DNA of 64,000 nt, taken from positions 75,777 through 139,776 of IMG/VR virus record IMGVR_UViG_3300008107_000017; one strand, 5' to 3'. The number at the start of each line of letters is the position of its first letter. Positions within the stretch are counted from its first letter, which is position 1. A model generated the notes under the pieces. That model saw nothing but the letters and a program-made list of their open reading frames with translations, did no database searches and had not been told where the DNA came from. The translations under genes and the position numbers were made by a program. The DNA is from a virus. Below, piece after piece: positions 3,377-53,456 of the stretch.

Positions 3377-4327
3377 ATGAAGTATGTCAAACTTTTTGAA
3401 GAGTTCTTAAATGAAGCCGTTGAAGATAACGGATTAAAGAAAGTATATTTAGCCACCCGCCGAGATAGTGGACAGAGATGGTGGTCTTATAAAGGTTTTG
3501 CCGGTGATAAGTTTTTTATTCAGGTTACCGAAAATAATATTGATAAGTTAGACATTAATCCTGAGTACCCTGTACTTAATTATCATAGTACTATAGTTGA
3601 TGAATTACTAAAAAGAAAATTGATTAAAGAGGAAAACATCTATAATCATCCTAAGTATATTCCACTATCTGGATCAAAGAAAGAGTTTCATAAACTTGTA
3701 GGTGAAGATGAAAATGTACCTAAGACCGTTTACTCAAAAAACGAGGCTTTAGAGAAATTAAACTTTCCTATCATTGCAAAGCCTGCAAATGGTCATAGCG
3801 GTATTGGAATTCAGGTTATTAAGAAGCCTGAATTAATGGAAGAACTTGATGAAAAGATATTTGACACTTTTTCTGAATATGTAGATAAGGTAGAGGAAAT
3901 GAGATTCTTTAACTTTAAAGGTCAACCTATTTTTTGGATGGAAAGAACACCTGCAAACAGTAAGGCAAAATCTGGTGATGGTAAGACCGATGAGGAAATG
4001 GAATTTAATTATGCTAAGAGAAATGTTGATAATATTCCAGAAGACTATAAAAAGGTTTTAGAAAAATACTGCAAAATATTTGAAAAGTTTCCTTACATCT
4101 GTTTTGATATGATGAAGGATAAAGAAGGTAAGATCTATGTTATTGAGTCAAATGCCCAGCCCGGTGTACCTTTCGATAGCACAGTTGAAATCTATAAGAA
4201 AGTATATGAAGACTTCTATGGTAAACCCCTAGATGAAAAATCTCTTCAAAAACTAGACGAATACTCAAAGGAAATGATTGAAAGAACACTGGAACGCGAT
4301 AAGAAAAGATTTTCTGTAAAAAAGTAG
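3377..4327 (+). CDS. ATP-grasp (RimK-like) ligase with capsid-targeting-like leader
   Basis: Leader MKYVKLFEEFLNE; VPKT...FPIIAKPANGHSGIGI...FDMM...YVIESNAQPG. Confidence 0.75.
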   Translation: MKYVKLFEEFLNEAVEDNGLKKVYLATRRDSGQRWWSYKGFAGDKFFIQVTENNIDKLDINPEYPVLNYHSTIVDELLKRKLIKEENIYNHPKYIPLSGSKKEFHKLVGEDENVPKTVYSKNEALEKLNFPIIAKPANGHSGIGIQVIKKPELMEELDEKIFDTFSEYVDKVEEMRFFNFKGQPIFWMERTPANSKAKSGDGKTDEEMEFNYAKRNVDNIPEDYKKVLEKYCKIFEKFPYICFDMMKDKEGKIYVIESNAQPGVPFDSTVEIYKKVYEDFYGKPLDEKSLQKLDEYSKEMIERTLERDKKRFSVKK

Positions 4328-4346
4328 AAAAAAGTCTACGAAAAAT

Positions 4347-4377
4347 TTTCAAATCTCGTTTTTTTGTTTTATATTTG
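4347..4377 (+). promoter_or_regulatory. Class I (host sigma-A-like, Bacteroidota-type) promoter TTTC-N19-TATATTTG
   Basis: Exact TAnnTTTG -7 box; same 19-nt spacing with TTTC at 36070, 42869, 55359, 58400, 63903 and within the repeated cassettes, where the -7 box is mostly TAWATTTA. Confidence 0.65.
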
Positions 4378-4414
4378 TACTGATGGTATTTTTATACTGT
4401 CTTAAAACAATGAT

Positions 4415-4960
4415 ATGTCTGAAGAACAATTAAGAGAAATCTCTGATTTTTACATTACATCGGATACGTGGTTTGGAAGGCCACAAATCCTTGATATTGC
4501 AAGGCGTACCCAGTTTTCAAGTATTGATGATATGAATGATCAATTCATCAAAAACTGGAATAAGCAGGTCAAATCATCTGACCTCGTTTTTCACTTAGGT
4601 AATTTTGCGTGGGATCCACATACCGCAAGAACTGTTTTGAAAAAGCTTAAAGGCAAAATCTTTTTCATGATTGGAAATTCTGATGAATCTCTACTGGAAG
4701 TAGCCGATGAGTTTGAAAACGTTGAGGTTCTTGATCAACAAATTATTGAACTTCCTCAATTTGATTCTATTCTCTGTCACTATCCGTTGGAAGTATGGAA
4801 TGGAAAATCATCAGGGACTATTCATTTTCATGGACATACCGTCTTTTCACATAAGACAGATCTAAGATCATCCAATCGTGTAAACGTTTGCATTGATTTT
4901 TGGAATTATTCACCAATTAAATTTTCGGCAATTAAAGAATTTACAAATGGCAAAATCTAA
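4415..4960 (+). CDS. Calcineurin-like metallophosphoesterase, degenerate active site
   Basis: ITSDTW, HLGNF, GNSD, CHYP, HGH align to the DxH, GD, GNHD, H and GHxH motifs with substitutions. Confidence 0.7.
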   Translation: MSEEQLREISDFYITSDTWFGRPQILDIARRTQFSSIDDMNDQFIKNWNKQVKSSDLVFHLGNFAWDPHTARTVLKKLKGKIFFMIGNSDESLLEVADEFENVEVLDQQIIELPQFDSILCHYPLEVWNGKSSGTIHFHGHTVFSHKTDLRSSNRVNVCIDFWNYSPIKFSAIKEFTNGKI

Positions 4961-5573
4961 AACCTACAAAGAACTGGCAATTGAGTTTAAGAAAACTCGC
5001 TCAGAAAGAATTTACAATGAACTTTACAAAAAGATGAGACCAGGATTATGGTCTTATGTAAATAACATCGTAAGAGATCCGGCGGTGGCTGATGATATTG
5101 TATCAACCACATTAACAAATGTTTACTTAAAGATTGATCAATATGATGAATCTTACCAAATAACTACATGGGCCTATCGTATTGCATATAATGAATGCAT
5201 TGGATGGATTAGGTTCCGCAATAAAAAGATAAGTATTAATGTATTTACCGATGCAGGTGTTGAACCTCCGGCAAGAGATGGTTTCCTTGAACCAGAAATG
5301 CATGTAAAAACCGAGGATGATTTCTGGGCAGAGGAAGATATCTTAACCGAACAGGTAAGACTAACTAAAGAAGCGATTAATGCATTACCTCCAATGTATA
5401 AGAGATACATGATAGAGAGATTCCTTAATCATAAATCATATAACGATATTCTTGATATCATGGTAGAACATGAAAAAGATATCAATCTACAGACGGTAAA
5501 GAATCGCATTTTCCGAGGTAGAAAAATAATTCAGAAACAGTTAGAGAAAATGAAACTCTTTTCTGAAGCATAA
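4947..5573 (+). CDS. RNA polymerase sigma factor, ECF-type
   Basis: Region 2 DDIVSTTLTNVYLKIDQYD...TTWAYRIAYN; region 4 AINALPP...TVKNRIFRGRK; about 208 aa. Confidence 0.85.
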   Translation: MAKSKTYKELAIEFKKTRSERIYNELYKKMRPGLWSYVNNIVRDPAVADDIVSTTLTNVYLKIDQYDESYQITTWAYRIAYNECIGWIRFRNKKISINVFTDAGVEPPARDGFLEPEMHVKTEDDFWAEEDILTEQVRLTKEAINALPPMYKRYMIERFLNHKSYNDILDIMVEHEKDINLQTVKNRIFRGRKIIQKQLEKMKLFSEA

Positions 5574-5592
5574 ATAGATAAAATAAAGAACT

Positions 5593-6033: not shown

Positions 6034-6037
6034 AAAC

Positions 6038-6781
6038 ATGGCAACAAAAGAATCTCTTTTACAGACCGAGACAATAAATGGAAAACGATACTATGTTATA
6101 GGTGAACATAAGTACCCATCAGTTACAACCATCTTAGGATCAATGACAGATTCATCTGGACTTGATAAGTGGAGAAAAAACATTGGTGAAGCCGAGGCAG
6201 ATAAGATCTCTAAGTTTTCTGCTAATCGTGGTACAATCATGCATCAAATGATTGAATATTATTTAGGTTCAGAAAAAGAAACTCAAAAAGAAAGGCTTAG
6301 AGAAGCACAGGAAAAAATCATTACTTTTGTTGAAGCAGAAGGTTTTACTGAAGATGAATTAGAGGTTGGCAGAAAATTATTCTATAGTTTTTATAATAAT
6401 GATCTCTTCAGTAAGATTGGTAAGGTTATAAGTATCGAGGAGACGATCTACTCCCACCAGATGGGAGGGTATGCAGGTAGAGTAGATAATATTTACGAGA
6501 ATGTTTTATCTCATCTACTCATTCTAGACTTTAAGACATCTCGTAAGAGAAAGAAAAAAGAATGGATAGAAAACTATTTTATGCAGATTGCTGCATATTT
6601 TCTAGCATATTGGGAAATGACCGGTAAAAAACCGGACGGTGGAGAAATCTGGATAGGTGTAGAAAATGATGAGCCTCAGGTTTTTGAACTTACCTGGGAT
6701 GATATTCAAGAATATGGTAAGAAATTCTTATCCCTAGTAAAGGAGTATCATAAACTCAATCCATTACCTCAGAATATATAA
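6038..6781 (+). CDS. PD-(D/E)XK exonuclease (Cas4/MGME1-like phage family)
   Basis: YPSVTTIL, RGTIMH, YAGRVD, LDFKTS, QIAAY. Confidence 0.85.
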   Translation: MATKESLLQTETINGKRYYVIGEHKYPSVTTILGSMTDSSGLDKWRKNIGEAEADKISKFSANRGTIMHQMIEYYLGSEKETQKERLREAQEKIITFVEAEGFTEDELEVGRKLFYSFYNNDLFSKIGKVISIEETIYSHQMGGYAGRVDNIYENVLSHLLILDFKTSRKRKKKEWIENYFMQIAAYFLAYWEMTGKKPDGGEIWIGVENDEPQVFELTWDDIQEYGKKFLSLVKEYHKLNPLPQNI

Positions 6782-6797
6782 AAAAACAAAATAATGA

Positions 6798-7631
6798 ATG
6801 AAACACATACAAACATTCGAGAGCTTCTTAAATGAAAGCATATTAAATGAAGCAGTGTCTGGAGGACCATACTTCCTTCAGATCAATTTGAGACAACAAT
6901 ACGGAGGAGGCCACAGCCTGGAAGCTGCAGTAGCTCCTTCGGATAAACAAGATTTTGCCGACATTCGCGACAAAGACAGCTTCTTGAGATCTCCCGAAAT
7001 AGACAAAGCAATTCGGAATTTGACTAACTGGAAACGCGGAGATAAGAGCGGAAAGATTGACGCGTCTTTCCTCAAAGAGTTCGAAAGGGCAATGGAAGGT
7101 ATAGGGTTCAAGCTTGTTAAGTTTAGATACTCTCATCCTCTTGTAATGCAAGTATCAAATGAATCTGAAGCAGTTGCAGCAATCAACAAGACAATTGCAT
7201 TGCTAGATAAACTTTACGATTCTTACACACCTGAACTGATACCTGTACAACCAGGTCCTGCTTCTTCTGTAAGAGCTTTTGCTGACCGACTTGTGAATGA
7301 TTATGTAAGTGGGAGAGGTGATGTTGTAAGAGAACTTGCAAGTTTTATTGAATCTGTGGTTGGTGCCAAGGTTACTAAATACCTTAAGCACGGACCCGAT
7401 GACAACACTGCAATTGACGCTGTTAGAGACCAATACAGAAAAGAGAGCCCTGTAAAGGAAGAAACTTGGGGAGTATTGAAAGCATGCGCATATAAAGACG
7501 GTGTGGTAATTGTGTGGATCGAAGATCCTGCTAAAACATCTACTCCAGAATACAACACAGACTATTCAGCCAAAAATCTTAAATATGGTGGTGTAGAACC
7601 TGGAGATGCCGCATTGGTAGTAAAAAAGTAA
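6798..7631 (+). CDS. Putative capsid-internal protein
   Basis: Leader MKHIQTFESFLNESILNE; late-type motif upstream. Confidence 0.6.
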   Translation: MKHIQTFESFLNESILNEAVSGGPYFLQINLRQQYGGGHSLEAAVAPSDKQDFADIRDKDSFLRSPEIDKAIRNLTNWKRGDKSGKIDASFLKEFERAMEGIGFKLVKFRYSHPLVMQVSNESEAVAAINKTIALLDKLYDSYTPELIPVQPGPASSVRAFADRLVNDYVSGRGDVVRELASFIESVVGAKVTKYLKHGPDDNTAIDAVRDQYRKESPVKEETWGVLKACAYKDGVVIVWIEDPAKTSTPEYNTDYSAKNLKYGGVEPGDAALVVKK

Positions 7632-7638
7632 ACGTAAT

Positions 7639-7944
7639 ATGAAACATATTCAGACATTCGAGACTTTTTTTGCTAGATTTCTATCTGAGGAATTAGACCA
7701 AACTAGACATAAGGCAGCTAAGCATATTGAGGACATTGAAACTGATAATGAATCAGATAAAAAGACCGAAAAGGATGCACAAGATTACTTAGACGATAAA
7801 TCTGATTATTGCCCACGATGCAGTGAACATAAAGACGATTGTCAATGTCAGGAAGATGATCCTTGGTCAACTCAAAATTACCATAGAGTACCTCCAGGTA
7901 AAAAAGAGAAGAGTAAAGCAAAACAAGAATTCAAAACAAAGTAA
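7639..7944 (+). CDS. Putative capsid-internal protein with CxxC cluster
   Basis: Leader MKHIQTFETFFARFLSE; CPRC...CQC. Confidence 0.6.
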   Translation: MKHIQTFETFFARFLSEELDQTRHKAAKHIEDIETDNESDKKTEKDAQDYLDDKSDYCPRCSEHKDDCQCQEDDPWSTQNYHRVPPGKKEKSKAKQEFKTK

Positions 7945-19003: not shown

Positions 19004-19047
19004 ATTTCTCTATGTTATGATGAATAAATAAAAAAAGATATCCTAAC

Positions 19048-19770
19048 ATGAAATTTATTAAAACGTTTGTTAACTTCTTAACTGAAAAGAAAGAAGAAAA
19101 AGACTTCGAGGATAAAATAAAAGGCCACGGATACTTTAAAGGTATATCAACCTCAACTGCCCGCAAGAAAGTGGATCAAATGAAAGACCAGGCTGCTAAA
19201 CCTGATAATGATCCTTCTGCTTATAAAGAATTACCAGGCGACACCAAAGGAAAGAAACTCCTAAAACCTTCTAAACATACTAAGAATTATCAGGATATCT
19301 ATGCTGATGATGAAAAGGACACTAAAAATGAATCTATCATTAATTGGGAACTCTATCAAAAGCTTAAAGAAAATGATCTTAAAATAGAAAAAGAGATCAA
19401 GGATTTTAGTATTCTTCCATTTATGATTAATGAGGATGACGCAGGTGGGGATCGTTCGCCGATTGATAATGATGCTATTGAAACTGGGTTAAAGAAAAAG
19501 AGCGAGGAAACAGGTGTTCCTTTACCGCTTCTTAGAATAGTAATGCGTCGTGGAATGGCTGCATGGAAAAGTGGTCATAGACCTGGTGCAGGACAAGAAC
19601 AGTGGGGTTATGCTAGAGTTAATTCATTTTTAACTCAAGCACCAGGAACATGGGGTCGTCCTATTAAAGATCCTCAAAAGAATGGACCTAAAGGCGCTTA
19701 TGGTGCCGATGCTGATGTAGCACAAGAAGTAATTAAAGGTGGTCATGATAAAAATCTAAAAAAAGGATAA
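19048..19770 (+). CDS. Putative capsid-internal protein (DUF5824-like C-domain)
   Basis: Leader MKFIKTFVNFLTE; RGMAAWKSGHRPG...QWGYARVNSF. Confidence 0.6.
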   Translation: MKFIKTFVNFLTEKKEEKDFEDKIKGHGYFKGISTSTARKKVDQMKDQAAKPDNDPSAYKELPGDTKGKKLLKPSKHTKNYQDIYADDEKDTKNESIINWELYQKLKENDLKIEKEIKDFSILPFMINEDDAGGDRSPIDNDAIETGLKKKSEETGVPLPLLRIVMRRGMAAWKSGHRPGAGQEQWGYARVNSFLTQAPGTWGRPIKDPQKNGPKGAYGADADVAQEVIKGGHDKNLKKG

Positions 19771-20216
19771 TGAAAACAATAAAACTATTTGAAGAATTTA
19801 AAGAAGCTACTTCATGTCCTGTACCAACTAAAGATTTAGAAGTTAATACCAAAAATCGTGATAGAGCAATTCATGCAGATTTTATTGATTATGGACCTCT
19901 TAATGTAGATGAACCTGCAGGTTATTGGGAACATTTAGCAGATCATTGGAATACCAGTGTTGATGCAGCTAAAGCATCTACATGTGGAAATTGTGTGGCT
20001 TTTGACATATCTCCTCGTATGTTAGAATGTATGCCAGGTGAAATTAGTGATGGCGATGGAAGATTAGGTTATTGTTGGATGCATCACTTTAAATGCCATT
20101 CTGCCCGCTCTTGTTATACATGGGCAAAGGGTGGTCCTATAACCGATGATAAGATATCTTACGGATGGCAAGAAAAAAATCTGGATGCTGCAAACAATCC
20201 AAACCCTATTAAGTAA
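19770..20216 (+). CDS. Cys-rich putative capsid-internal protein
   Basis: Leader MKTIKLFEEFKE; CGNC...GYCWMHHFKCHSARSC. Confidence 0.6.
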   Translation: MKTIKLFEEFKEATSCPVPTKDLEVNTKNRDRAIHADFIDYGPLNVDEPAGYWEHLADHWNTSVDAAKASTCGNCVAFDISPRMLECMPGEISDGDGRLGYCWMHHFKCHSARSCYTWAKGGPITDDKISYGWQEKNLDAANNPNPIK

Positions 20217-20218
20217 TT

Positions 20219-20761
20219 ATGAAATTTGTAAAAAACTTTAATGATTATCATAAAGTCTCCGAGGGACTTAAATATCATATAGAAAATGGTTTGGATTTAA
20301 CAAACAGTGTTTATCGCTTAGGTTCAGATTCATATGCCAATCTATTTGAAGAAGTAAAACAATATTGGGATAAAGGAAATATCATCCTAAACGGAAAGAG
20401 CGGTTGGATGGCAAAAAATCTCGAGGTTGGAAAACCCGCTGTTTATACTGACCGTAAAACCGGAAGAACTACTAAGGTAAAACTCGATTCACCAGAAAGA
20501 GGTGGAAATAAAAAGTTTATCGTTTATCGTAATACTGGTAGAACTAATGAAAATGGCGATGTGGTTGCAAGAAAGATTGAATGGGGTGATCCTAATCTTA
20601 CTGTAAAGAATGATGATCCAGGTCGGGCTGCATCTTTTTGGGCAAGGCATGGTTGCGATAAAGCAGAAAAGATGGATCCTAATAAGGCAGGTTTCTGGGC
20701 ATGTTATGGTCCAAGCTTGTTTGGAAAACAGTTAGGTTTAAGTAGCACTGAACCTTGGTAA
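20219..20761 (+). CDS. Putative capsid-internal protein
   Basis: Leader MKFVKNFNDYHKVSE; SFWARHGC...FWAC. Confidence 0.55.
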   Translation: MKFVKNFNDYHKVSEGLKYHIENGLDLTNSVYRLGSDSYANLFEEVKQYWDKGNIILNGKSGWMAKNLEVGKPAVYTDRKTGRTTKVKLDSPERGGNKKFIVYRNTGRTNENGDVVARKIEWGDPNLTVKNDDPGRAASFWARHGCDKAEKMDPNKAGFWACYGPSLFGKQLGLSSTEPW

Positions 20762-20788
20762 ATAAATAAACAAATAATAAAAAAAGAT

Positions 20789-22144
20789 ATGAGACATATT
20801 CCTAATTATTCGGAATTTAAGAAAATTAATGAAGCTTTTGCTACTTCAATGACAACAGTTCAAAATGATGCCAAATTGAATCAGGCCGCTGATATTATTA
20901 CAAACTTCTTAAATAAGAAAACCGGTAAGGCATTTAAGAAATTCCCGTTCCTGGTATATTCAAATGGAACCCCGGGCATTATGCTTTATAGTGATAAAGA
21001 TAGTTCTGCGGTTAGAATTAGCGGCGGGGCTGGTCGTTTTCCTGGTGTAGTTGGTCAATTGGACTATTTTTCTGATGCTGCTTCACAAACGGCTGATTTT
21101 TCTGTTAGTAGTGAAACATTCCCAATTGTTGCATTACTTAATGAATTTGTTAAATTAGTCAATGAACCTTCATATGCAACAGAAGTAGAATCATTAACTG
21201 AATCTACTCTTAATGAAGCAACTAAATCTTTCTCACCAGCTGAGCAGAAAACAATCTTAAGCAGATTGGATAAAGGCGAAAGCGGCGCTGCTATTGCAAG
21301 AGATATGGGAGTATCATACGGTATGATCCTACAACTTAAGAGAAATGTAAATGTTCCTCAAGATGAGAATCCTGCAGTAAAGGCAAACGAATTAACTTTG
21401 CAAGATAAGGTTAAACTATTGGATGAAACATTAGATGACCTTTATGAAATTACTAGAAGACTTGCTGCTGGTGCATTTACTTCCCTAATGGTTTCAGGTA
21501 GAGCAGGTACTGGTAAAACATTCTCTGTTACTAAAGCATTAAAAGATGAAGGTCTTATTGAGGATGATGACTTTATCGTTGTGTCCGGAGCAGTATCAGT
21601 TATTATGATGTATAAGAAAATGTATCAATACAGAAATCAAGTTCTTGTATTTGATGACTGTGATGCTGTATTCCGTGATGAAAATGGTCGTAACATCTTA
21701 AAGGCCGCTCTTGATACTAAAAAGACCAGAAGAATTTCTTATCTTAAGAAGAGTGGATTAGTATTTGACCCTAAAGATTTTGAAAATAATCCAGAAGGTG
21801 AATTTAATGCAATTGAAAATGGATTAGTTCCTGCATATTTTGATTTTGCCGGTAGAGTGGTATTTATCTCAAACCTTCCTAAAGATAAAGCTGACCCTGA
21901 TGGAGCTATTCGTTCAAGATCAATCTTAATTGACGTTAATCCTGATGATATGACTCTAATGGAAAGAATTAAGATTCTTTTACCAGATCTTGAACCAAGA
22001 GATATGCCTCTCAAAGATAAAGAAGAAATTTTTGAATTTATGAAACGCGCAAAAGACGTCTCAATGAGAACCTTTGTTAAGGCTGCAGGTTTCAAACAGG
22101 CAGGTCTAAACAATTGGGAAAGAATGGCACAAAGATATCTATAA
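20789..22144 (+). CDS. AAA+ ATPase with central HTH and capsid-targeting-like leader
   Basis: Leader MRHIPNYSEFKKINE; HTH SGAAIARDMGVSY; Walker A GRAGTGKT; Walker B LVFDDCD; FISN; AIRSR. Confidence 0.75.
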   Translation: MRHIPNYSEFKKINEAFATSMTTVQNDAKLNQAADIITNFLNKKTGKAFKKFPFLVYSNGTPGIMLYSDKDSSAVRISGGAGRFPGVVGQLDYFSDAASQTADFSVSSETFPIVALLNEFVKLVNEPSYATEVESLTESTLNEATKSFSPAEQKTILSRLDKGESGAAIARDMGVSYGMILQLKRNVNVPQDENPAVKANELTLQDKVKLLDETLDDLYEITRRLAAGAFTSLMVSGRAGTGKTFSVTKALKDEGLIEDDDFIVVSGAVSVIMMYKKMYQYRNQVLVFDDCDAVFRDENGRNILKAALDTKKTRRISYLKKSGLVFDPKDFENNPEGEFNAIENGLVPAYFDFAGRVVFISNLPKDKADPDGAIRSRSILIDVNPDDMTLMERIKILLPDLEPRDMPLKDKEEIFEFMKRAKDVSMRTFVKAAGFKQAGLNNWERMAQRYL

Positions 22145-22147
22145 TAT

Positions 22148-23626
22148 ATGAAACATTTTAGATCATACAGTGAGTTTAAACTCCAGGAAAAATACGAAGG
22201 TGTAGAGGTTAGTACTAGACGCTACGAAAGAGTACATGGTAAAAAACCGCGTGGAAATGGAATGTGGGCATTTTACCTTGATCCAATTGGTGATGAACCT
22301 ATTTTTACTCCTTCTGCAATGAACTATACCGATGCTGTTAAATGGGCATCTCTTAAAGCCAGAAACATGGGTAAGAAAGTTATCTATGTTGGTGAATCGG
22401 TTAATGAAGAAGTAAATCCTAAAATTAAAGATGAAGTTATTTCAAGACTATCTGACTTCTTTAGAGTTTCCCCTAATGCCTTAAAGAAATTTAATTTTGA
22501 TGGAAACGATAACATTAAAGAACTTACAAAGGCTCTTAATTCAACTAGTGATCAAGGCACTAAGCTTTATTATGATACTGCAATTAAACTTGCAAAAGAA
22601 GATCTTGGTATCAGAGAATCGGTTAATGAAGCCTATAACGGTAATATGTCAGACTTCAAATATGATTTGGAAATGGCAGTTGAAGAACTGGGTATATCTG
22701 GTAATGCAATAAAAAAGGTTTCAAAATCTGGTAAAGGATATGAAGTTAGAATGTCCAGTTATATGAGTCAACGTGGTACTTGGGAAAAGATTGGGGAACT
22801 TATTGGGGCTACTCTTGTAGATTTTAAAGCAGATAAATCAATCAATGTTGGAATTTATGAAAGGGAAACATCCATCACTGAAGGTGAAGCTCTTATCTTT
22901 GATATAGTAGAACCTGAGTTTAATGATCTTAAGAATAAGATATCTGATCTTAATAAAAAGACAGTTGACCTAAAATGGAGAAAGGCATTAGATCAAATTC
23001 AAAGAGAGGTTGAAAAACTTGAGTTCTTTATATCTAAATACGATAAACAATTAGGTGCGATTGAAACTAATGAATCTCTTAACGAACGTGAATACTCTGA
23101 TGAAGAAAGAAAAGATATGGCTGATAAAGGCTTAGCCTTACCTGATGGTTCATTTCCAATTAAAGACTTAGAGGATCTTAAAAATGCTATTCAGGCATAC
23201 GGCCGCTCAAAGGATCAATCCGCTACTGCTAAATTTATTGTTAAGAGAGCAAAGGCACTAAGTGCCGAGGATCTTATTCCTGATACTGAAGATTTTCAAA
23301 AGGCTTTAAAGGAAACTATTACTGAAGGTAATGCATTCCTTGCTGCCCGTGCAAAAGCAATTGATGAAGATGCCGAGGAGTTTGAATTTAATGGTAAAAA
23401 ATATCCAGTATTAAATAGACCTAAGAAACTTAATGAAGAGCTTTCTGATAATGATGCATATAAGATTATAGATATAGGTTCAAAGTTTTCTAAGGAAGTA
23501 GGCGGACATTTACTTGCAACCCAGACATTTGATACAGCCAATGATTTTGTTGATTACCTTCTTTCTGAATTTATTCCAAAGAAAGATCATCCAAAATTCT
23601 TAAAGTCTGTTAAATCATTAATGTAA
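22148..23626 (+). CDS. Modular putative internal polyprotein (includes a DUF6582-like module)
   Basis: Leader MKHFRSYSEFKLQE; linkers ESVNE, ESVNE, ETSITE, ESLNE, ETITE, KLNE; ALPDGSFPI...NAIQAYGR. Confidence 0.65.
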   Translation: MKHFRSYSEFKLQEKYEGVEVSTRRYERVHGKKPRGNGMWAFYLDPIGDEPIFTPSAMNYTDAVKWASLKARNMGKKVIYVGESVNEEVNPKIKDEVISRLSDFFRVSPNALKKFNFDGNDNIKELTKALNSTSDQGTKLYYDTAIKLAKEDLGIRESVNEAYNGNMSDFKYDLEMAVEELGISGNAIKKVSKSGKGYEVRMSSYMSQRGTWEKIGELIGATLVDFKADKSINVGIYERETSITEGEALIFDIVEPEFNDLKNKISDLNKKTVDLKWRKALDQIQREVEKLEFFISKYDKQLGAIETNESLNEREYSDEERKDMADKGLALPDGSFPIKDLEDLKNAIQAYGRSKDQSATAKFIVKRAKALSAEDLIPDTEDFQKALKETITEGNAFLAARAKAIDEDAEEFEFNGKKYPVLNRPKKLNEELSDNDAYKIIDIGSKFSKEVGGHLLATQTFDTANDFVDYLLSEFIPKKDHPKFLKSVKSLM

Positions 23627-23627
23627 T

Positions 23628-24221
23628 ATGAAATACTTTAAAAAATATAATGAATTTATCACTGAAAAGATTGCATATCCTGATGGAGACAAAACTACCG
23701 GTGATAAGATTCTTGATAAGTTTGCTAAATTAATTAATAGTCCATCAAGTACTGTTAATATTATGTCATGGGCAGTTCAGGGTAGAAGTATACCTTTTAT
23801 GACTGGTGCCGAATCTTTTTCTGTAAATGCTAATCCATCACAAGACTATTTTTGGATTAATACATCAAAGGGAAAATTTAGACTACCTAAGAAGGATATT
23901 AAAAAGGCCGAGGAATTATATGATGAGGTAGAATCTATTATACAAACTGGAAAGCCTAAAAGAAGTGTTGAAGAATCTCTTAATGAATCTACTTCATTAA
24001 AGAATGCAATTGCTATTCTTAAGAAAGAAAACATTATGGCATATCCTAACCCAGAAGATTTGGCAAAAGCAATTCACAAACACTATAAAGAAATTACAGG
24101 AGATAAGTACGAAGATGCTGTTGAAATGTCAATGAACGATAAGGTAGCTGATATCGTATCATATTTCAAAATCGACGGTTCAGACTTTATGTCAGCCTGG
24201 GATAAAACAATAAAAGACTAA
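23628..24221 (+). CDS. Putative capsid-internal two-module protein
   Basis: Leader MKYFKKYNEFITE; internal EESLNE. Confidence 0.6.
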   Translation: MKYFKKYNEFITEKIAYPDGDKTTGDKILDKFAKLINSPSSTVNIMSWAVQGRSIPFMTGAESFSVNANPSQDYFWINTSKGKFRLPKKDIKKAEELYDEVESIIQTGKPKRSVEESLNESTSLKNAIAILKKENIMAYPNPEDLAKAIHKHYKEITGDKYEDAVEMSMNDKVADIVSYFKIDGSDFMSAWDKTIKD

Positions 24222-24224
24222 ACT

Positions 24225-24641
24225 ATGATTACATCATTTAATAATTTCTTAAACGAAAACTTCGGAGAAGCACAAGACATTTATGGCTCATTCTTTGTTG
24301 CTATGTTAGGACTTAGAGATCAGGCCCATATATTTCATTGGCAAACAGAATCATTTGCACAACATAGCGCATTTGGTGGATTTTATGATACCTATCTTAC
24401 ATTAGTTGATAAGTTATCAGAATCTTTAATTGGTATTCATGGAAGACCTTCTTTTATGGAAGCTGAAATTGAATTATCTGGTTATAGTGAAGAAAACATT
24501 GCGATATTTTTAGAAAAAGCATATGCTTTATTCTTAGGGCAAGGAACTGAATTGGCTGGCGGTAATACCGAAATTAAGAATATCATCGATGAGATTATTG
24601 CTGAACTTGATAAGTTAAAGTATCTTCTTACTCTTAAATAA
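24225..24641 (+). CDS. Dps/ferritin-like protein (DUF5856-like) with leader
   Basis: Leader MITSFNNFLNE; HIFHWQT..FAQHSAFG.FYD...DKLSE; DEI...KYLL. Confidence 0.75.
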   Translation: MITSFNNFLNENFGEAQDIYGSFFVAMLGLRDQAHIFHWQTESFAQHSAFGGFYDTYLTLVDKLSESLIGIHGRPSFMEAEIELSGYSEENIAIFLEKAYALFLGQGTELAGGNTEIKNIIDEIIAELDKLKYLLTLK

Positions 24642-24943
24642 TGAAATTCATTAAGGCATACGAATCGTTCCTATTTGAAGGAAAACCTAAAGGTGCTCCT
24701 GATTGGCATGATTCAGATGCTCCTGATGCAGAAGGTCGTTTTAAAGATCTTTCACCAAAGGACCTCGCCGCTTGGCTTATTAAGTCAAGAAAAGGCGATC
24801 TAAAAAGAATAAGCGGTTCACTCACACAGCAGGTTGTTTTTAATCGTAATGATGATCCTGCATATGCGGAAAAGATGGAAAAGACTCGTAAAGAAGTTTA
24901 TAAACAATTAGGGAGAGAAGACCTATTAAATAAAAAGGATTAG
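24641..24943 (+). CDS. Putative capsid-internal protein
   Basis: Leader MKFIKAYESFLFE. Confidence 0.6.
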   Translation: MKFIKAYESFLFEGKPKGAPDWHDSDAPDAEGRFKDLSPKDLAAWLIKSRKGDLKRISGSLTQQVVFNRNDDPAYAEKMEKTRKEVYKQLGREDLLNKKD

Positions 24944-39026: not shown

Positions 39027-39137
39027 AATTGTTAATAACTTTTTTCAGTTTTTTTCACTCTAGAGAGAAAAAAGTTTCCTAAAAATTTTTTTATCCCAAT
39101 TATTTGTATTATATTTATATAAAATAAAACGGATATG
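39027..39137 (+). repeat. Early regulatory cassette, copy 1
   Basis: AATTGTTAATAACTTTT...GAAAAAAGT...ATCCCAATTATTTGTATTATATTTATA...AAACGGATATG. Confidence 0.85.
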
Positions 39138-40854: not shown

Positions 40855-40947
40855 ATTGTTAATAACTTTTTGAAAAAAGTCACTAAAATATTTTTTTATC
40901 CCAATTATTTGTATTAAATTTATACTATAATTAAATAAACGGATATG
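40854..40947 (+). repeat. Early regulatory cassette, copy 2
   Basis: Same elements as 39027. Confidence 0.85.
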
Positions 40948-43203: not shown

Positions 43204-43501
43204 GAAATACAGATACCGCATTGAACACATTTATCCACCGGCATTTGCAGTGGTAGGTGGTCAGCGGTATCTGTTTCCTGGCTGGATTCCTGTCGAAGAT
43301 GATGTTACATTCGAAGATGTGGAACATATTAATCCTTATGCAAATCTAAAAAAGGAAACCTTCACGGTGACAGGATCCACTGGAAATACATACACGGTGA
43401 CACGGCGAGAAAACGCACTCACTTGTGACTGCCCAGCCGGAAAATTCCGCGGTCAATGTAAACATATAACCCAAATTAAAACCGAACTGTCATTGTCCTA
43501 A
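43196..43501 (+). CDS. SWIM zinc-finger protein
   Basis: GSTGNTYTV...CDCP...CKHI. Confidence 0.8.
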   Translation: MPKKYRYRIEHIYPPAFAVVGGQRYLFPGWIPVEDDVTFEDVEHINPYANLKKETFTVTGSTGNTYTVTRRENALTCDCPAGKFRGQCKHITQIKTELSLS

Positions 43502-43523
43502 TATATAAAATAAATTAGTACAA

Positions 43524-43826
43524 ATGAATACAGTTCTTATTATTTTATTGATTGCAGCTGTTATTGCAACAATATATACTACGTTTAGTGGTAAAAAGAG
43601 TTCAACATTAGTAGGATATTCCGAACCACATAAACCAAGCGGTATCTCTGGGTTTAAACCGAGCGGTACATCTGGTATCTCTGGAACTAAACCGAGCGGT
43701 ACATCTGGTATCTCTGGAACTAAACCAAAGCCAAAACCGAGCGGTACATCTGGTATTAAAGGTGTTAAAAAACCTGGAAGACCAAAGAAGACGAGTGGCA
43801 ATAGCGGAATTAAAGGAATTAAATAA
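43524..43826 (+). CDS. Membrane-anchored Lys/Ser/Gly repeat protein
   Basis: N-terminal TM helix; KPSGTSGISGT tandem repeats (33-bp DNA unit). Confidence 0.65.
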   Translation: MNTVLIILLIAAVIATIYTTFSGKKSSTLVGYSEPHKPSGISGFKPSGTSGISGTKPSGTSGISGTKPKPKPSGTSGIKGVKKPGRPKKTSGNSGIKGIK

Positions 43827-44212
43827 TGAAAAGCTATAAAGACTTCATATCAGAATCATTTGTACAAAATGTAGTACAAAACGATAAGGATCCAAACTTT
43901 GATGGTGCAGATCCTTCCTCTATTGAAATTCATAATAGGGGTATTGGTGGAGTAAATTCTCTACAAGGTCATCGTGATCAAATTGTAAGACTTTTGGAAC
44001 AAATGCTTGCTGATGCTAAAATGGCTCAAAAGAACCATAAATTAGCTCATTACTCTATTGCAAAGATTTTATCTTTGGCTGATCCTGATCGTATAACAGG
44101 TGTGTTACTCACTTACCTAAAGAACCATCAGACTGCAATTGAAGAATTAGAAGCAATTCGTAGAAAAGGTGGAAGTGGAGCCGGAAAATCAATTCCTAAA
44201 GGATTGATCTAA
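43826..44212 (+). CDS. Putative capsid-internal protein
   Basis: Leader MKSYKDFISE, a close parallel of T4 IP MKTYQEFIAE. Confidence 0.65.
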   Translation: MKSYKDFISESFVQNVVQNDKDPNFDGADPSSIEIHNRGIGGVNSLQGHRDQIVRLLEQMLADAKMAQKNHKLAHYSIAKILSLADPDRITGVLLTYLKNHQTAIEELEAIRRKGGSGAGKSIPKGLI

Positions 44213-44227
44213 AAATAAAATTACATA

Positions 44228-44998
44228 ATGGCATTAAGATTTAACAGCATTCAAGAATACGGTGAGTATATCTATAATGAATGTATTAAGCAAAACAAGC
44301 AAAAAGATGTTTGTAATAGTGGAAAAGGTGGTACAAAAACAAAAGTAACTGACTCCGATCCTGATGGTTTTAGTTTAACTTATTCTTCAAGTAACCTAGA
44401 TGCTAAATCACAGGAATATCTAAACACCCACACGGTGATAAGTAAGGCACCACCGCAAAATGCCCCAGCCCATATAGAAATTGTTGAAGGTGAAATCTGG
44501 AAGCAAACTATTCACAAGTATGATAAAAATGTTTATGCAAACAAAACTGTAGTTGATAATTCAACTGACTTTTCTGTTTCTGCTGATGCATCTTATAAAG
44601 AAGCTAATGTAAGTGCCAATTACGAACAGGTTTATTCTGAAGAAGATACTAATGTAAGTGAAGAAGTTTCAAAAGATGCATCACAATATGATTTGGAATT
44701 TCACGGCATTCAAGGAAAGCATTATGCTGTAGATTTTTATACAAATAAGTATACGTGCTCTGACCGCCCAACTTTAGAAATTACTTATACTTTTAAGTCA
44801 ATAACATTTAGAGCGGTATGCGATTATTCAGACGGAGCTGCATTACATTGGAATAATGAACATTATCATAAAACATATGATATAGTATCTTTAGGTCTTG
44901 ACCCTATTGTTACAATTCCACAAACTGTGGTATTTGATGTTAATTATGATAACCCATGGCCTAGTTACACAATAACAAACATAATTGATAACATATGA
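44228..44998 (+). CDS. Ser/Thr-rich beta protein, possibly aerolysin/ETX-MTX2-like
   Basis: Alternating amphipathic segment STDFSVSADASYKEANVSANYEQVYS. Confidence 0.35.
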   Translation: MALRFNSIQEYGEYIYNECIKQNKQKDVCNSGKGGTKTKVTDSDPDGFSLTYSSSNLDAKSQEYLNTHTVISKAPPQNAPAHIEIVEGEIWKQTIHKYDKNVYANKTVVDNSTDFSVSADASYKEANVSANYEQVYSEEDTNVSEEVSKDASQYDLEFHGIQGKHYAVDFYTNKYTCSDRPTLEITYTFKSITFRAVCDYSDGAALHWNNEHYHKTYDIVSLGLDPIVTIPQTVVFDVNYDNPWPSYTITNIIDNI

Positions 44999-45582
44999 AA
45001 CATATTAGAGAATACGAAGAATTTCTAAACGAAAACACAAACGCAAGGCGATTCCAAAATAAAGGAAAACTGCGCTATAGTGATCAATTTAGTGGTAATA
45101 TTAGTCTTTCTAAAACAATTGGTACTGAACTAGGATTTGATCCAAAAAAAGGATCATCGGGTGTTGGATTTGATAATGTATCTATGTATGATAATGAATC
45201 GAGTAAAACTATCGTAGGTGATGCACTTACCGGTAAATACACATACGATGAACTGGTTAAACTTGCCAAAGAATGGTACGATAAAAATGAATCTATGATT
45301 GGTGAAGCCGCAAGTGTACCTTCAAATATCATGGATTTTGCAAAGAGAAAGGGTTCTTATGCAGTTAGTCTTGTAAAGAAAGCTGCAACCTGGGCAGAGA
45401 AAGCCGGTAAAAGAATCTCGGGTGGTACTGCAATTGGAAAGAATTATGATACAATTATTCTTGATATGAAACACCAAGGATCTGAGATTTATATCAATCT
45501 TAATGATGAAACAATTGAACTATTTGGAGAAGAGGTAACTGATGCTAAATCGTTTGCCAAGGTACTTCAGGATAACGAATAA
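44995..45582 (+). CDS. Putative capsid-internal two-module protein
   Basis: Leader MKHIREYEEFLNE; internal NESMIGE. Confidence 0.6.
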   Translation: MKHIREYEEFLNENTNARRFQNKGKLRYSDQFSGNISLSKTIGTELGFDPKKGSSGVGFDNVSMYDNESSKTIVGDALTGKYTYDELVKLAKEWYDKNESMIGEAASVPSNIMDFAKRKGSYAVSLVKKAATWAEKAGKRISGGTAIGKNYDTIILDMKHQGSEIYINLNDETIELFGEEVTDAKSFAKVLQDNE

Positions 45583-45592
45583 ATATTTTACC

Positions 45593-46042
45593 ATGAAGCA
45601 CATACAAACATTTGAAAGTTTCTTAAATGAAGCCGTTAAATTAAAAATTGCATATACTCCGATTGATAAGAAAGCGTATACTACGCAAAGGCAAGGTATT
45701 AAGTTTTCTGTAAAAATTAACAATCAAACGGCAACCGGAATTTGGGTTCCGAAGTATGGTGATATAAGTAACGGTGTTGATGTAAATGAATTAGAAGGAT
45801 CTGACAGAAAAAGATTCTACATATTTTCTTCTGGCGGATCTTCTAGATCTTTTCCTATTAGTGTTCAACTCGAGGAATTGGATAAACAGCCAAAAGATCT
45901 AAGTTTCACTGGGCCGTATCTTGATATTAGCAAACTAAAAAGTGCGTTTATTGATAAGATAACACAAGCTATAGAAAAACCTACAAAAGAAGAACAACTT
46001 TCACCAGAGTTTTTGGAGTACTTTGGTATAAATCAAATTTAA
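45593..46042 (+). CDS. Putative capsid-internal protein
   Basis: Leader MKHIQTFESFLNE, identical to that of 6798. Confidence 0.6.
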   Translation: MKHIQTFESFLNEAVKLKIAYTPIDKKAYTTQRQGIKFSVKINNQTATGIWVPKYGDISNGVDVNELEGSDRKRFYIFSSGGSSRSFPISVQLEELDKQPKDLSFTGPYLDISKLKSAFIDKITQAIEKPTKEEQLSPEFLEYFGINQI

Positions 46043-46058
46043 GAATAAGTAATTTACT

Positions 46059-46907
46059 ATGAAACATATTAAACACATTGATTCATTTATTAATGAAGCA
46101 AAAGACCTATCAATTAAAGACTATAAAGTTGGTGATGTTATTTCCTTTAAAGACGGTGAAGACTGGAAGGTAACAAAGATTAAGTATGATAAACTCATGG
46201 TTAAGCCTCATAATGAAAAAGCCAAAAAAGCAAATACGAGTATAGAGATTGATATTGACTTAGACTATCTTAAAAATAATTTAGCAGAATCTACTGTTAA
46301 TGAAGGTCGTACAATTGAAAAGATTGAAAAAGACAGAACCAAGATCATAAATGATATGGCTGAAATTGTTACTAATTGGAAAGCCGCTAAAGAATCTGGT
46401 GATAAAAAAGCCGAGGCATCATTTTTACAAAGACTTAAGGACCTCACCGCTCAAAAGAAAGGCCTAGAGAAAGAACTTAATGTGGCAATTGCTGGTAAAG
46501 ACCGTGATGTCGAATTAGTTATCTCAGAAGGTGTTATGTCCGAGATTGACCTATTAGCTCAAGAAGCCAAAAACTTTAAAGATTTTCTTAAAGCATTTAA
46601 GACCGATAATCGTTATAAAGGTTTAGATACCGCAGGTGATGTTAAGGAATTTGAATCTTGGTTAAAATCTATATATGATAACGCTAAGAATGAAAGTATG
46701 AATGAAGGTGAAGATGTTAAGAAAGGCATTCATGATCATTGGAAAGAACTGTATAATGAAGACTTTGTTTCTGCTTATCCTAAAGTAGCAAAGATTCTTA
46801 AGAATCGTCAAAACGTTGATCGTCGCGAATTGGCAAGAATCTGGGATGAAACCTATGGCGAAGACTTTAAAGAAAAGTACGCTAAGATCTGGGATGTTTT
46901 AGATTAA
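46059..46907 (+). CDS. Putative internal polyprotein (4 modules)
   Basis: Leader MKHIKHIDSFINE; linkers ESTVNE, LVISE, ESMNE. Confidence 0.6.
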   Translation: MKHIKHIDSFINEAKDLSIKDYKVGDVISFKDGEDWKVTKIKYDKLMVKPHNEKAKKANTSIEIDIDLDYLKNNLAESTVNEGRTIEKIEKDRTKIINDMAEIVTNWKAAKESGDKKAEASFLQRLKDLTAQKKGLEKELNVAIAGKDRDVELVISEGVMSEIDLLAQEAKNFKDFLKAFKTDNRYKGLDTAGDVKEFESWLKSIYDNAKNESMNEGEDVKKGIHDHWKELYNEDFVSAYPKVAKILKNRQNVDRRELARIWDETYGEDFKEKYAKIWDVLD

Positions 46908-51148: not shown

Positions 51149-51519
51149 AAATTGCATTAATAGCCCATGATGGTAAAAAGGCCGATATGGTTGCCTTCGT
51201 TATGAAAAGACTAGATTTCTTTAACAGAAGTAATGTTAACATTGTTGCAACCGGTACAACCGGTACAATGATCACACATGCCGGTGTTGATAAAGTAGAA
51301 AGAGTAAACAGCGGCCCTCTTGGTGGAGACGCCGAAATAGGTGCAATGGTGACAAGAGGGGAAATTACAGGTGTAATCTTTTTTAGAGATCCTCTTGATA
51401 AACACCCACATGAACCTGACATCCAAATGTTAATGAGAGTATGTGATGTACATGACATACCACTTGCAACCAATTACAAATCAGCACATATAATGATTAA
51501 ATATTTTCAAAAAAAATAA
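51145..51519 (+). CDS. mgsA: Methylglyoxal synthase
   Basis: IALIAHDGKK, ATGTTG, SGPLGGD, FFRDPL..HPHEPD, IPLATN. Confidence 0.95.
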   Translation: MKIALIAHDGKKADMVAFVMKRLDFFNRSNVNIVATGTTGTMITHAGVDKVERVNSGPLGGDAEIGAMVTRGEITGVIFFRDPLDKHPHEPDIQMLMRVCDVHDIPLATNYKSAHIMIKYFQKK

Positions 51520-51523
51520 TAAA

Positions 51524-52771
51524 ATGAAAACAGAATTATGTAATTTATTTGAAAAGTATAAAGCGGATAAATGCCCTACCGTTTTACATACATACTCACC
51601 GGCTTATTTTAACATTCTAAAAGATATTAGAAAATCTGCGAAGAATGTATTAGAAATTGGAATTGGTACAGTTCCTATCATGGAAGGTGGTGTTGGTATA
51701 AAAGGTTATGTACCAGGCGCAAGTATTAAAGGGTGGCGAGACTTTTTTCCTAATGCAACCATATATGCAGTTGATATAGAGGAATCCGTTATGTTCTCTG
51801 ACGATAGAATTATTACAGATGTAGTAGACCAATCCTCCGTTGATAGTATTAGAAAGTTTACAAAAAAAGTAAATAAACAATTTGATTTTATTATTGATGA
51901 TGGTTCTCATCTAATTGATCATCAAATTATATCTGCATATGAATTAGTAAATAATCTTGCTGATGATGGCATATACATTATTGAAGATGTTCATATAAAC
52001 TATATGCCTATTTACGAAGAGATAGAGTTTCCAGGTTTAACTAAGATACATACCCATCTTGGAACTGGTGATGTCTGGGATAATTTTATAGCATATAAGA
52101 AAACTAAATCTATAACTAAAGATATCCCTAAAATACTTCATATGATATGGGTTGGTAAACAAGAGCCGCCACAGTATTTTATTGATAATGTTAATAAGTG
52201 GAAGTCTCTTATGCCGGATTGGGAATATATGATATGGACTAATGATAAGATGACAGAAAAGTATTTTGATAAAGATTATTTAGAAGTCATAAATAAAGTA
52301 GTTAATCCATCACAGGCTTCTGATTTTATTAGATTCTATGTAATGAATAAGTGGGGTGGATATTACCTAGATGCTGATGTAACACCTATTCGCACTCTTA
52401 ATGAATTATCAATAAACCATCCTATTGTTTTATGTAATGATTTACCTGACAATGGCCCTTTCTATATGATGTCTGCATTTATGGGAGGTGTTCCAAACCA
52501 TCCTTTATGGATAAAATGTATGGAAGAATGCAAAAAGGTAGATCTTAGTATTACATACGGTGAAGGAGTAATGCCAACAGGGCCTTTTGTATTAGGTCTT
52601 GTTAGTCAACAACTCATTAATTGGAATGATGTAGGTGGATATACGCAATTACCTTACTGGTCATTTTATCGTAATCGTGTTGGCGATCCAAGTCCTTACA
52701 TGCCGGATCGTATTATGCAAGACCACCCTGAAGCATTCGGTAATCACTTTTATGCAGGTACCTGGCTCTAA
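51524..52771 (+). CDS. Methyltransferase fused to a GT32 (DxD sugar-binding) glycosyltransferase
   Basis: LEIGI...IIDDGSH...IIED; IPKILHMIW...SDFIR...GGYYLDAD. Confidence 0.85.
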   Translation: MKTELCNLFEKYKADKCPTVLHTYSPAYFNILKDIRKSAKNVLEIGIGTVPIMEGGVGIKGYVPGASIKGWRDFFPNATIYAVDIEESVMFSDDRIITDVVDQSSVDSIRKFTKKVNKQFDFIIDDGSHLIDHQIISAYELVNNLADDGIYIIEDVHINYMPIYEEIEFPGLTKIHTHLGTGDVWDNFIAYKKTKSITKDIPKILHMIWVGKQEPPQYFIDNVNKWKSLMPDWEYMIWTNDKMTEKYFDKDYLEVINKVVNPSQASDFIRFYVMNKWGGYYLDADVTPIRTLNELSINHPIVLCNDLPDNGPFYMMSAFMGGVPNHPLWIKCMEECKKVDLSITYGEGVMPTGPFVLGLVSQQLINWNDVGGYTQLPYWSFYRNRVGDPSPYMPDRIMQDHPEAFGNHFYAGTWL

Positions 52772-52889
52772 GAATATATAAACAAATGATAAGTACTCTA
52801 GGTAATATTGCTGCTGCCTTATTTGTTTTACAAGGAACTATAATGATGTTACCTCTTATTATACTTGGTAAAATTATTAGAGCTTTTAA

Positions 52890-53456
52890 GTGAAACATAT
52901 AAAGACATACGAAAAATTCCAATTAGTGGAAGAAACCTACCAGATCCTAGAGGGTAAGGTTTCTCATGAAGAACTTTCTGGAATTATTAACGAAGGTTTC
53001 TTTGGATTTATTCGTAATCTCTTTGTTGATAATAAAACCAAACGTGCTCTTGATAAACTCGCCGATGATCTATTTAAGACAAAGGTGGAGTTAATGAAAC
53101 TTGAGATCCAGGAAGACCAGGTAGATGCCTTTAAGGATGAACTTAAAGCAGCGGAACAAGGACAGGACTATTCATCTCAACAGGGAGACCTTGATACAAC
53201 TGACCTAGACAGGATTAAGGAAATGAAGATCAAATCTCTACAAGACCGCGAAACTGCAATATCTGATGAAATGGACAATCTTGGTCAGATATCGGATAAA
53301 CTACAGAGGTATGTAGAAAAGATTAAACTAGATGTCCGCATGAAGGCAACCGATGCTACAATCAGGATAGCTGACGATGAAATTGCCCGTATTCTACAGA
53401 AACTAAAGCGCGAGGATCAAAAACAATCCCAGCAAATTGACCGCGAATTACGTTAA
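52890..53456 (+). CDS. Coiled-coil putative capsid-internal protein (GTG start)
   Basis: Leader MKHIKTYEKFQLVEE; IINE. Confidence 0.55.
   Translation: MKHIKTYEKFQLVEETYQILEGKVSHEELSGIINEGFFGFIRNLFVDNKTKRALDKLADDLFKTKVELMKLEIQEDQVDAFKDELKAAEQGQDYSSQQGDLDTTDLDRIKEMKIKSLQDRETAISDEMDNLGQISDKLQRYVEKIKLDVRMKATDATIRIADDEIARILQKLKREDQKQSQQIDRELR

Follow-up and report, generated by a model that had tools for sequence, protein, structure and literature searches.

Sixteen unrelated proteins of an uncultured T4-like phage share a putative capsid-targeting leader that matches the repeat of its scaffold

What is the function of a short peptide with which sixteen otherwise unrelated proteins of one phage begin? 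This question is raised by a 64-kb stretch of viral DNA (the window), bases 75,777-139,776 and thereby the final 64 kb of the 139,776-bp IMG/VR contig IMGVR_UViG_3300008107_000017. Judged by its genes, the contig derives from a large uncultured T4-like jumbo phage. It is ~45 % complete according to CheckV, and further genes of the phage lie outside it. A sequence-only reading of the window had likened the peptide to the leader found on T4's internal proteins and had proposed that it loads a large and diverse set of enzymes and effectors into the head for delivery at infection. The analysis described here largely agrees with that proposal, and each computational check able to refute it turned out in its favour. 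The shared N-terminus (the tag) is taken, with a probability of roughly 0.75, to be a T4-type capsid-targeting propeptide, that is, a copy of a repeat in the phage's own scaffold by which its bearer would enter the prohead core, be cut by the prohead protease, be retained in the head and be ejected. Packaging of the tagged proteins into the capsid appears to be their most likely fate.

All sixteen N-termini listed by the sequence-only reading were recovered at the positions given in Table 1. A hidden Markov model (HMM) of the leader, built from 48 leaders of other phages and none of the window, was applied to 2,200 candidate starts, taken from the two strands of the contig, and ranked all sixteen above every other called gene start. 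Fourteen starts scored E < 0.01, and the higher values were 0.035, 0.11 and 0.29. The few other matches in the same score range were alternative upstream starts of the gene at 45593 or internal starts. The shared leader is not a product of chance. The bodies behind it were said to be non-homologous, and this was borne out: an all-vs-all BLASTP search with the bodies (residues 19 to end) gave nothing significant (best pair E = 0.002 over 53 residues). Most bodies match no family, and those with Pfam or PHROGs assignments differ in domain (ATP-grasp, DUF5824, DUF5856/Dps-like, P-loop ATPase). The claimed row of eight tagged genes was also found, at 19048-24943, with no other open reading frame (ORF) between them. 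Fifteen of the sixteen genes start with ATG; the gene at 52890 starts with GTG, while its orthologue (81 % identity) has ATG. For the genes at 3377 and 45593 a longer reading from 3326 (GTG) and 45542 (ATG), respectively, is possible; the leader ATG was chosen, as these longer frames run into the gene before them or into the promoter motif. An orthologue of the 3377 protein, with 70 % identity, has kept the leader.

The tag is usually 13 residues long, of the form MKHIxxFExFLNE. The logo of 59 canonical leaders from this and related contigs reads M-K-[HY]-I-[KQ]-[TL]-[FY]-E-[SED]-F-[LIV]-N-E, with [FY]7, F10, [LIV]11 and E13 preset by the regular expression that collected these leaders. The sixteen leaders of the window, which were not selected in this way, have the first aromatic residue in 15 cases and the second, three residues on, in all 16. 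The leader ends in a cut motif of the gp21 type (hydrophobic-x-Glu), behind which a small residue stands. The ending is L/I-x-E in 14 of the 16, V-S-E in one and F-K-E in one, and in 65 % of 303 tagged ORFs from relatives this Glu is followed by Ala, Ser or Gly. Synonymous codons are used freely in the 59 leaders (His CAC 15 and CAT 21; Ile ATA 27, ATT 21 and ATC 4; second Phe TTC 26 and TTT 33); the second codon is mostly AAA. Because synonymous sites vary freely, selection acts on the peptide and not on a DNA or RNA element.

The gene for a prohead protease was located on the contig, in a T4-type head module ~35 kb upstream of the window, where its product is fused to a scaffold. The protease is of the S77/gp21 type and shares 30 % identity with T4 gp21; its GELDHP and ISSR motifs align with GELNHP and VSSR of T4, so that the catalytic His and Ser are conserved. 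The solved structure 5JBL has Ala at both of these positions. A weaker match to Peptidase_S80 (32 bits, against 54 bits for S77) was found as well. The closest public relatives of the protease are encoded by the 'uncultured phage' genomes LR756500-LR756504 and LR745206 (462-735 kb; 36-44 % identity); those of the Prevotella Lak phages come next.

The tag core [FY]xx[FYH][LIVMF]xE occurs 28 times in the 42,057 amino acids (aa) of the called genes of the contig: 10 copies lie in the protease-scaffold, 10 at the N-termini of tagged proteins and 8 elsewhere. Nine of the ten scaffold copies, at residues 238 to 350, follow each other at an exact 14-residue period (YSEHIGE, YAEYLSE, YSDYLAE and so on). 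Between 5 and 13 such repeats were counted in each protease-scaffold of eight further contigs that bear the tag; in the complete 482-kb contig, 13 follow one another. The tag core thus equals, by sequence comparison, the 14-residue repeat of the scaffold itself, which suggests that the tag would join the core like one more scaffold repeat and be cut at the same site. T4 gp22, gp67 and gp68 have many hydrophobic-x-Glu sites, without this repeat. The major capsid protein of the contig begins with MYANHLINE/AE (a slash marks a predicted cut) and has NLNE/S at residue 47; the LINE/A site is also found in a 462-kb relative. A 385-aa protein rich in Ala, Lys and Glu, encoded at genome 45843-47000 (30 kb upstream of the window) beside the head genes and provided with a late-type motif, starts with MKELVNFEHFRIIKE/A. 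With its looser leader, this protein is a seventeenth candidate and likely one more protein of the core or of the inner head.

The cut motif is also encountered inside tagged proteins, at the borders of modules, in four independent cases. A related contig encodes a 217-aa protein that shares 74 % identity with residues 83-282 of the 46059 protein, and there the leader (...FMNE/GRS) is joined straight to the body; in the window this place is taken by an extra 69-residue module and ...ESTVNE/GRT. The same body is therefore directly tagged in one phage and placed behind an extra module in another, and the description of the tag as portable holds. The two modules of the 19048 protein are arranged as tag-A-FMINE/DD-B in the window, as tag-B-A in contig G002 and as two genes, each with its own tag, in contig G005. 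Homology of the 20789 protein to stand-alone P-loop proteins of T4-like phages starts at residue 144, the first after ESLTESTLNE. A 34-residue module of the 22148 protein is found again in G005, where it lies between MNE/G and VSE/A in a 331-aa protein with no other relation to the chain. The motif ES-x-[LIVMF]NE (or TE, SE or QE) occurs in eight proteins of this genome, of which six are tagged and one is the protease-scaffold. Searches of Pfam with single modules of the 22148, 20789 and 46059 proteins yielded nothing above noise, and a protein atlas search with the 6798 protein gave no usable match. Both ESVNE junctions of the 492-aa chain (window 22388-22410 and 22610-22632) have an identical stretch of 16 bases, GAATCGGTTAATGAAG, as their coding DNA, at which recombination may in addition take place to swap modules.

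A fused version of the operon start is known from a cultured phage. Methylophilales phage Melnitz, a marine T4-like phage (MZ577097.1, L163:2519-4471), encodes a 650-aa protein with the T4-like leader MKKFSEIIE/A, in which an NMNAT-like domain, module A, DUF5824 and a 20219-like module are joined. Because Melnitz carries this chain as one protein, the cluster 19048-20761 of the window is a split version of it. Genes beside the 650-aa gene also begin with leader-like peptides.

Tagged genes are not restricted to this contig. The exact leader MKHIQTFESFLNE was found in six other IMG/VR contigs, and the looser form MKHIxxFExF[LIVM]NE in at least 118 stretches. With a strict DNA pattern, each related contig (47-482 kb) yielded 5-24 matches and LR756500.1 yielded 20; reversed-pattern controls yielded none. 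Contigs with the tag stem from freshwater samples. The S77 protease is present in 13 of 16 large tagged contigs, in a frame of 578-747 aa; the three contigs without it are 49-67 % complete. Within 1.14 Mb of relatives' loci, 303 distinct ORFs (55-650 aa) begin with the tag, and their bodies belong to 185 unrelated clusters. On this sequence evidence the tag marks a clade of phages of 130-480 kb. The set of tagged proteins, which the sequence-only reading called unusually large, is indeed large compared with the three internal proteins of T4, but it is typical for this clade. The densest array seen is that of IMGVR_UViG_3300042691_038651, with six tagged ORFs of ~100 aa each, head to tail in 2.4 kb. 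A megablast comparison of the tagged cluster with cultured phages gave no match. The cultured Flavobacterium phage vB_FspM_immuto_2-6A (L161:4989-7049) has small genes with leader-like N-termini that end in hydrophobic-x-Glu (MKKSELVKLIKE/E and MENTFDLKKFLVE/N) and is a possible bench system for the tag.

The clusters of tagged genes were reported to follow late-type promoter motifs. This holds for four of the five clusters with a sharper consensus, the 10-mer [AGT][AG]ATATATAA, which occurs five times in the window; four of these copies (3350, 6772, 43499 and 52772) stand 13-27 nt before tagged units. Structural genes, among them those for portal, protease and sheath, likewise have the 10-mer, at 20-36 nt from their start codons on the upstream side. 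The eight-gene operon is headed by the variant GAATAAATA, which is also found in front of the tail-tube gene (genome 60540). Intergenic DNA shows a 12.6-fold enrichment of TATATAA. Given the gp55-type sigma factor of the contig, late co-expression of the tagged clusters with the head genes would be the natural reading. A small hydrophobic ORF similar to that before the 52890 gene also precedes its orthologue in a related contig. Other genes show two further motif classes. A conserved cassette of ~50 nt, TTTTTTTATCCCAA(T/A)TATTTGTATTA(T/A)ATTTATA...AAACGGAT, stands before several small ORFs (window 39060-39135, 40870-40945, 55790-55862 and 57990-58068) and resembles early promoters of a host-type (Bacteroidota-like) class, which differ from the late-type motif. 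Genes for replication and nucleotide metabolism are preceded by a third promoter-like class, (AAACC...)GCATATAAAAATAAA.

The tag and its portability, the scaffold repeat that it equals, the protease with its catalytic residues, the shared promoter motif and the module boundaries on the cut motif are features of the DNA itself; core binding, cleavage, retention in the virion and ejection we infer from them. The tagged proteins would be made late, together with the head proteins, and the tag would bring them into the scaffolding core as this becomes enclosed by the shell. The gp21-type serine protease would then cut after the Glu of hydrophobic-x-Glu. This same cut would take off the tag, break up the scaffold and trim the capsid protein, and cargo of several modules would be split at the internal junctions of the ES-x-NE type. 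The freed proteins would be retained inside the head alongside the DNA and would most probably exit together with it when the next infection takes place. A part of the tagged proteins may belong to the head core or organise DNA and not be injected effectors.

Several observations weigh against this scheme. Many homologues of the 20219 protein have VSPE instead of VSE, with Pro next to the Glu, and the AlphaFold model of this protein packs residues 1-20 into the fold with high confidence. Because of both findings, the tag of the 20219 protein may be neither removed nor free. The overall quality of the model is fair (predicted local distance difference test, pLDDT, 78.5); Foldseek found no match for it at E <= 0.001, and the best VIA-align score (Z 4.9, first 60 residues) is at noise level. 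Internal [LIVMF]NE[ASG] motifs in the relatives' loci are only mildly denser in tagged ORFs (1.03 per 1000 aa) than in untagged ORFs (0.78), both being above the reversed control; the weak contrast, unlike the clean one within this genome, is likely caused by cargo with other leaders in the 'untagged' set. The late-type motif is AT-rich, and the late timing would follow by analogy with T4. A leader is missing from the T4-like homologue of the 20789 ATPase, which is not known as a virion protein. The literature gave no virion proteome for this uncultured phage. Finally, Tenacibaculum phage PTm1 has a homologous protease-scaffold yet no such tag family: the scaffold repeat is another one there, and no N-terminal word is common to the 451 ORFs of this phage. 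PTm1 was considered as a test for co-variation of tag and scaffold, but it neither supports nor contradicts scaffold mimicry.

The best surviving alternative, which we consider unlikely, accepts that the tag sends proteins to the prohead core and holds that most of them are assembly parts (extra scaffold, inner body, DNA organisers) that are degraded and expelled at maturation or left with the DNA, with no role in the host. The identity of the tag with the scaffold repeat is expected under this explanation too, and T4 gp67 and gp68 are core proteins that are cut likewise. Several tagged bodies are charged, coiled-coil-like or small, and the Dps-like body could bind DNA. The 20219 family is conserved like a core structural gene, with 348 clusters at E <= 0.001 and 70-86 % identity among the 120 matches listed. 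However, enzymes such as the ATP-grasp ligase and P-loop ATPase of the window and the NMNAT-like enzymes of relatives would be poor scaffolds. The fast turnover, with 185 body families in ~1.1 Mb, moreover resembles the pattern of accessory or arms-race genes seen with the T4 internal proteins (PMC12373910).

Clearly less probable still is a tag unrelated to the capsid, whether a recognition peptide for another partner, such as an enzyme modifying ribosomally synthesized and post-translationally modified peptides (RiPPs), a degradation or sorting signal, or a 5' element boosting translation in a host that lacks Shine-Dalgarno sites. The genes of the contig, tagged ones included, have no visible Shine-Dalgarno sequences before them, and AAA as the prevailing second codon would suit the last of these options, but the free synonymous sites exclude an RNA or DNA element. 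The top structural matches of the 20219 N-terminal domain are RiPP-recognition-like, though with Z < 5 at noise level. A radical-SAM/SPASM maturase would be expected beside the tagged genes of a RiPP-like system, but no radical-SAM match (PF04055, E <= 0.01) was found in the 140 kb of the contig, ~45 % of the genome. A secretion signal is contradicted by the charged residues of the tag and its lack of a hydrophobic stretch. None of these options explains the invariant Glu with its small neighbour, the motif at module junctions or the identity with the scaffold repeat. That the sixteen genes are old paralogues with the N-terminus as last remnant, their bodies having diverged beyond recognition, would fit their clustering, as of tandem duplicates, and the one weak body-body match (E = 0.002), but it is very improbable in view of bodies of 100 to 492 aa with different established domains, bodies tagged directly or behind a module, module orders swapped between phages and untagged stand-alone homologues in T4-like phages.

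A capsid-targeting propeptide thus remains the preferred explanation of the tag. A further-reaching form of it is put forward tentatively, at slightly under even odds: the tag would work as a single copy of the scaffold repeat, any bearer would co-assemble in the core and be freed by the cut that dismantles the scaffold, and the clade would use this as a plug-in system for dozens of exchangeable modules (ATP-grasp ligases, P-loop ATPases, NMNAT-like enzymes), encoded as separate genes or as chains cut in the head. If true, the full set of injected proteins of a large uncultured phage clade would be readable from sequence alone. Injected proteins act before any phage gene is read. Should the tag be what it seems, a sequence rule for packaged, probably injected proteins of a widespread, uncultured clade of 130-480 kb would yield hundreds of candidates for counter-defence and take-over functions, and scaffold-repeat mimicry would be a simple physical account of how the tag functions. 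Natural modular cargo chains cut inside the capsid would also be useful to engineers of protein carriers based on phage heads.

The features discussed above are collected in Table 1. Nearly all genes of the window lie on the + strand, and its G+C content is 32-42 %. The region 52000-64000 has a G+C content of 0.40-0.42 against ~0.34 before it, with a GC skew near zero at 52-60 kb, and this block of 52-64 kb may have a different origin.

Table 1 Tagged genes, promoter-like motifs and head genes. Positions are those of the window, or of the contig where marked 'genome'; a slash marks the predicted cut
Feature	Position	Strand	Size (aa)	Leader or motif	Remarks
Tagged gene	3377..4327	+	316	MKYVKLFEEFLNE/A	ATP-grasp ligase body (RimK/YheCD-like); leader HMM E 9e-9
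Tagged gene	6798..7631	+	277	MKHIQTFESFLNESILNE/A	two cut motifs in tandem; orthologue 70 % identical
Tagged gene	7639..7944	+	101	MKHIQTFETFFARFLSE/E	small, highly charged body
Tagged gene	19048..19770	+	240	MKFIKTFVNFLTE/K	module A, then DUF5824 (module B); junction FMINE/DD
Tagged gene	19770..20216	+	148	MKTIKLFEEFKE/A	Cys-rich body
Tagged gene	20219..20761	+	180	MKFVKNFNDYHKVSE/G	very conserved family
Tagged gene	20789..22144	+	451	MRHIPNYSEFKKINE/A	N-terminal module, ESLTESTLNE/A, P-loop ATPase
Tagged gene	22148..23626	+	492	MKHFRSYSEFKLQE/K	~6 modules of 62-117 aa; junctions ESVNE, ESVNE, SITE, ESLNE, KLNE
Tagged gene	23628..24221	+	197	MKYFKKYNEFITE/K	internal EESLNE/S
Tagged gene	24225..24641	+	138	MITSFNNFLNE/N	short leader; DUF5856/Dps-like body
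Tagged gene	24641..24943	+	100	MKFIKAYESFLFE/G	basic body
Tagged gene	43826..44212	+	128	MKSYKDFISE/S	10-residue leader in exact T4 register (T4: MKTYQEFIAE)
Tagged gene	44995..45582	+	195	MKHIREYEEFLNE/N	
Tagged gene	45593..46042	+	149	MKHIQTFESFLNE/A	GAATAAATA 16 nt upstream
Tagged gene	46059..46907	+	282	MKHIKHIDSFINE/A	extra 69-aa module, ESTVNE/G, conserved body
Tagged gene	52890..53456	+	188	(M)KHIKTYEKFQLVE/E	GTG start; coiled-coil-like acidic body
Hydrophobic ORF, 35 codons	52786-52893			MISTLGNIAAALFVLQGTIMMLPLIILGKIIRAFK	between late-type motif and 52890; stop overlaps GTG
Late-type motif	3350..3359	+		GGATATATAA	27 nt before ATG 3377
Late-type motif	6772..6781	+		GAATATATAA	before 6798
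Late-type variant	19022..19030	+		GAATAAATA	after terminator hairpin; heads eight-gene tagged operon
Late-type motif	43499..43508	+		TAATATATAA	heads operon 43524-46907
Late-type motif	52772..52781	+		GAATATATAA	before 35-codon ORF coupled to 52890
Third promoter-like class	upstream of 27981, 33710, 63430; genome 8480, 25411, 28632, 48365, 72882			(AAACC...)GCATATAAAAATAAA	
Late sigma factor	genome 37576-37941				gp55-type, phrog_234
Portal	genome 39024-40673				Portal_T4, 249 bits
Protease-scaffold	genome 40719-42449		576		N-terminal third Peptidase_S77 (T4 gp21), PF03420, 54-56 bits, above cut-off
Major capsid protein	genome 42533-44248				Gp23, 99 bits
Tail sheath	genome 57284-60499				Phage_sheath_1C, 42 bits

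Among known systems, the capsid-targeting sequence (CTS) of T4, carried by IPI, IPII, IPIII and Alt and cut by gp21, is the closest. Its leader MKTYQEFIAE, as quoted by the sequence-only reading, was read in the T4 genome, where two genes carry it. Targeting is assigned to residues 4 and 7 of the T4 CTS and processing to residues 8 and 10 (PMC9026906, section 2.6), and these four residues (Y, F, I and E) align with the four conserved positions of the tag. In both systems a short N-terminal peptide with an aromatic-xx-aromatic-aliphatic-x-Glu pattern and a small residue behind it precedes unrelated bodies; the leader of the 43826 protein is nearly that of T4. Passages in several papers describe the diverse internal proteins of T-even phages as sharing only the capsid-targeting leader (PMC3012670, PMC9026906; PMC12373910, citing Repoila et al. 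1994 and Mullaney & Black 1996), and T4 internal proteins neutralise restriction enzymes directed against modified DNA (PMC12373910). In the T4 capsid protein the cut lies at SFLTE/A, close to SFLNE/A of the tag. A change of the Glu to Asp blocks cutting in T4. The S77 protease, portal, capsid protein and late sigma factor are further likenesses, as are genes that are clustered and vary between relatives. The systems differ in that the leader described here usually has 13 residues, three more than in T4, and that at least 16 tagged genes in ~45 % of a genome stand against three or four. The cargo, known here from sequence alone, includes enzymes and multi-module chains with internal cut motifs. 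Furthermore, the tag copies the 14-residue repeat of a protease-fused scaffold, while T4 gp22 is separate and lacks such a repeat.

The phiKZ-like giant phages (phiKZ gp175, SPN3US gp245) likewise have many head-internal or ejected proteins, enzymes included, that are cut after Glu by a gp21-related protease, and their propeptides carry several cut sites (PMC5694885); the Peptidase_S80 match of the protease described here is a further likeness. Their propeptides, however, mostly exceed 100 residues and share no short tag, their motif is S/A/G-x-E instead of hydrophobic-x-E, and the head genes of the contig are of the T4 type. Assignment to the phiKZ-type inner body was considered and set aside: the tag is short and shared, a hydrophobic residue stands two before the Glu, and the S77 match of the protease exceeds that to S80. 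Viral polyproteins resemble the multi-module chains in that unrelated modules, encoded by separate genes in relatives, are joined in one frame by a motif that fits the virus's own protease. They differ in that cutting here would take place inside the assembling capsid and on accessory cargo, not on the replication machinery. A literature search, covering few subscription journals, found no description of this tag family in uncultured or jumbo T4-like phages. As far as sequences can tell, the system is the T4 system in a distant, uncultured clade, from which it differs by a longer tag, a much larger and partly enzymatic set of proteins, chains of modules and the relation between tag and scaffold.

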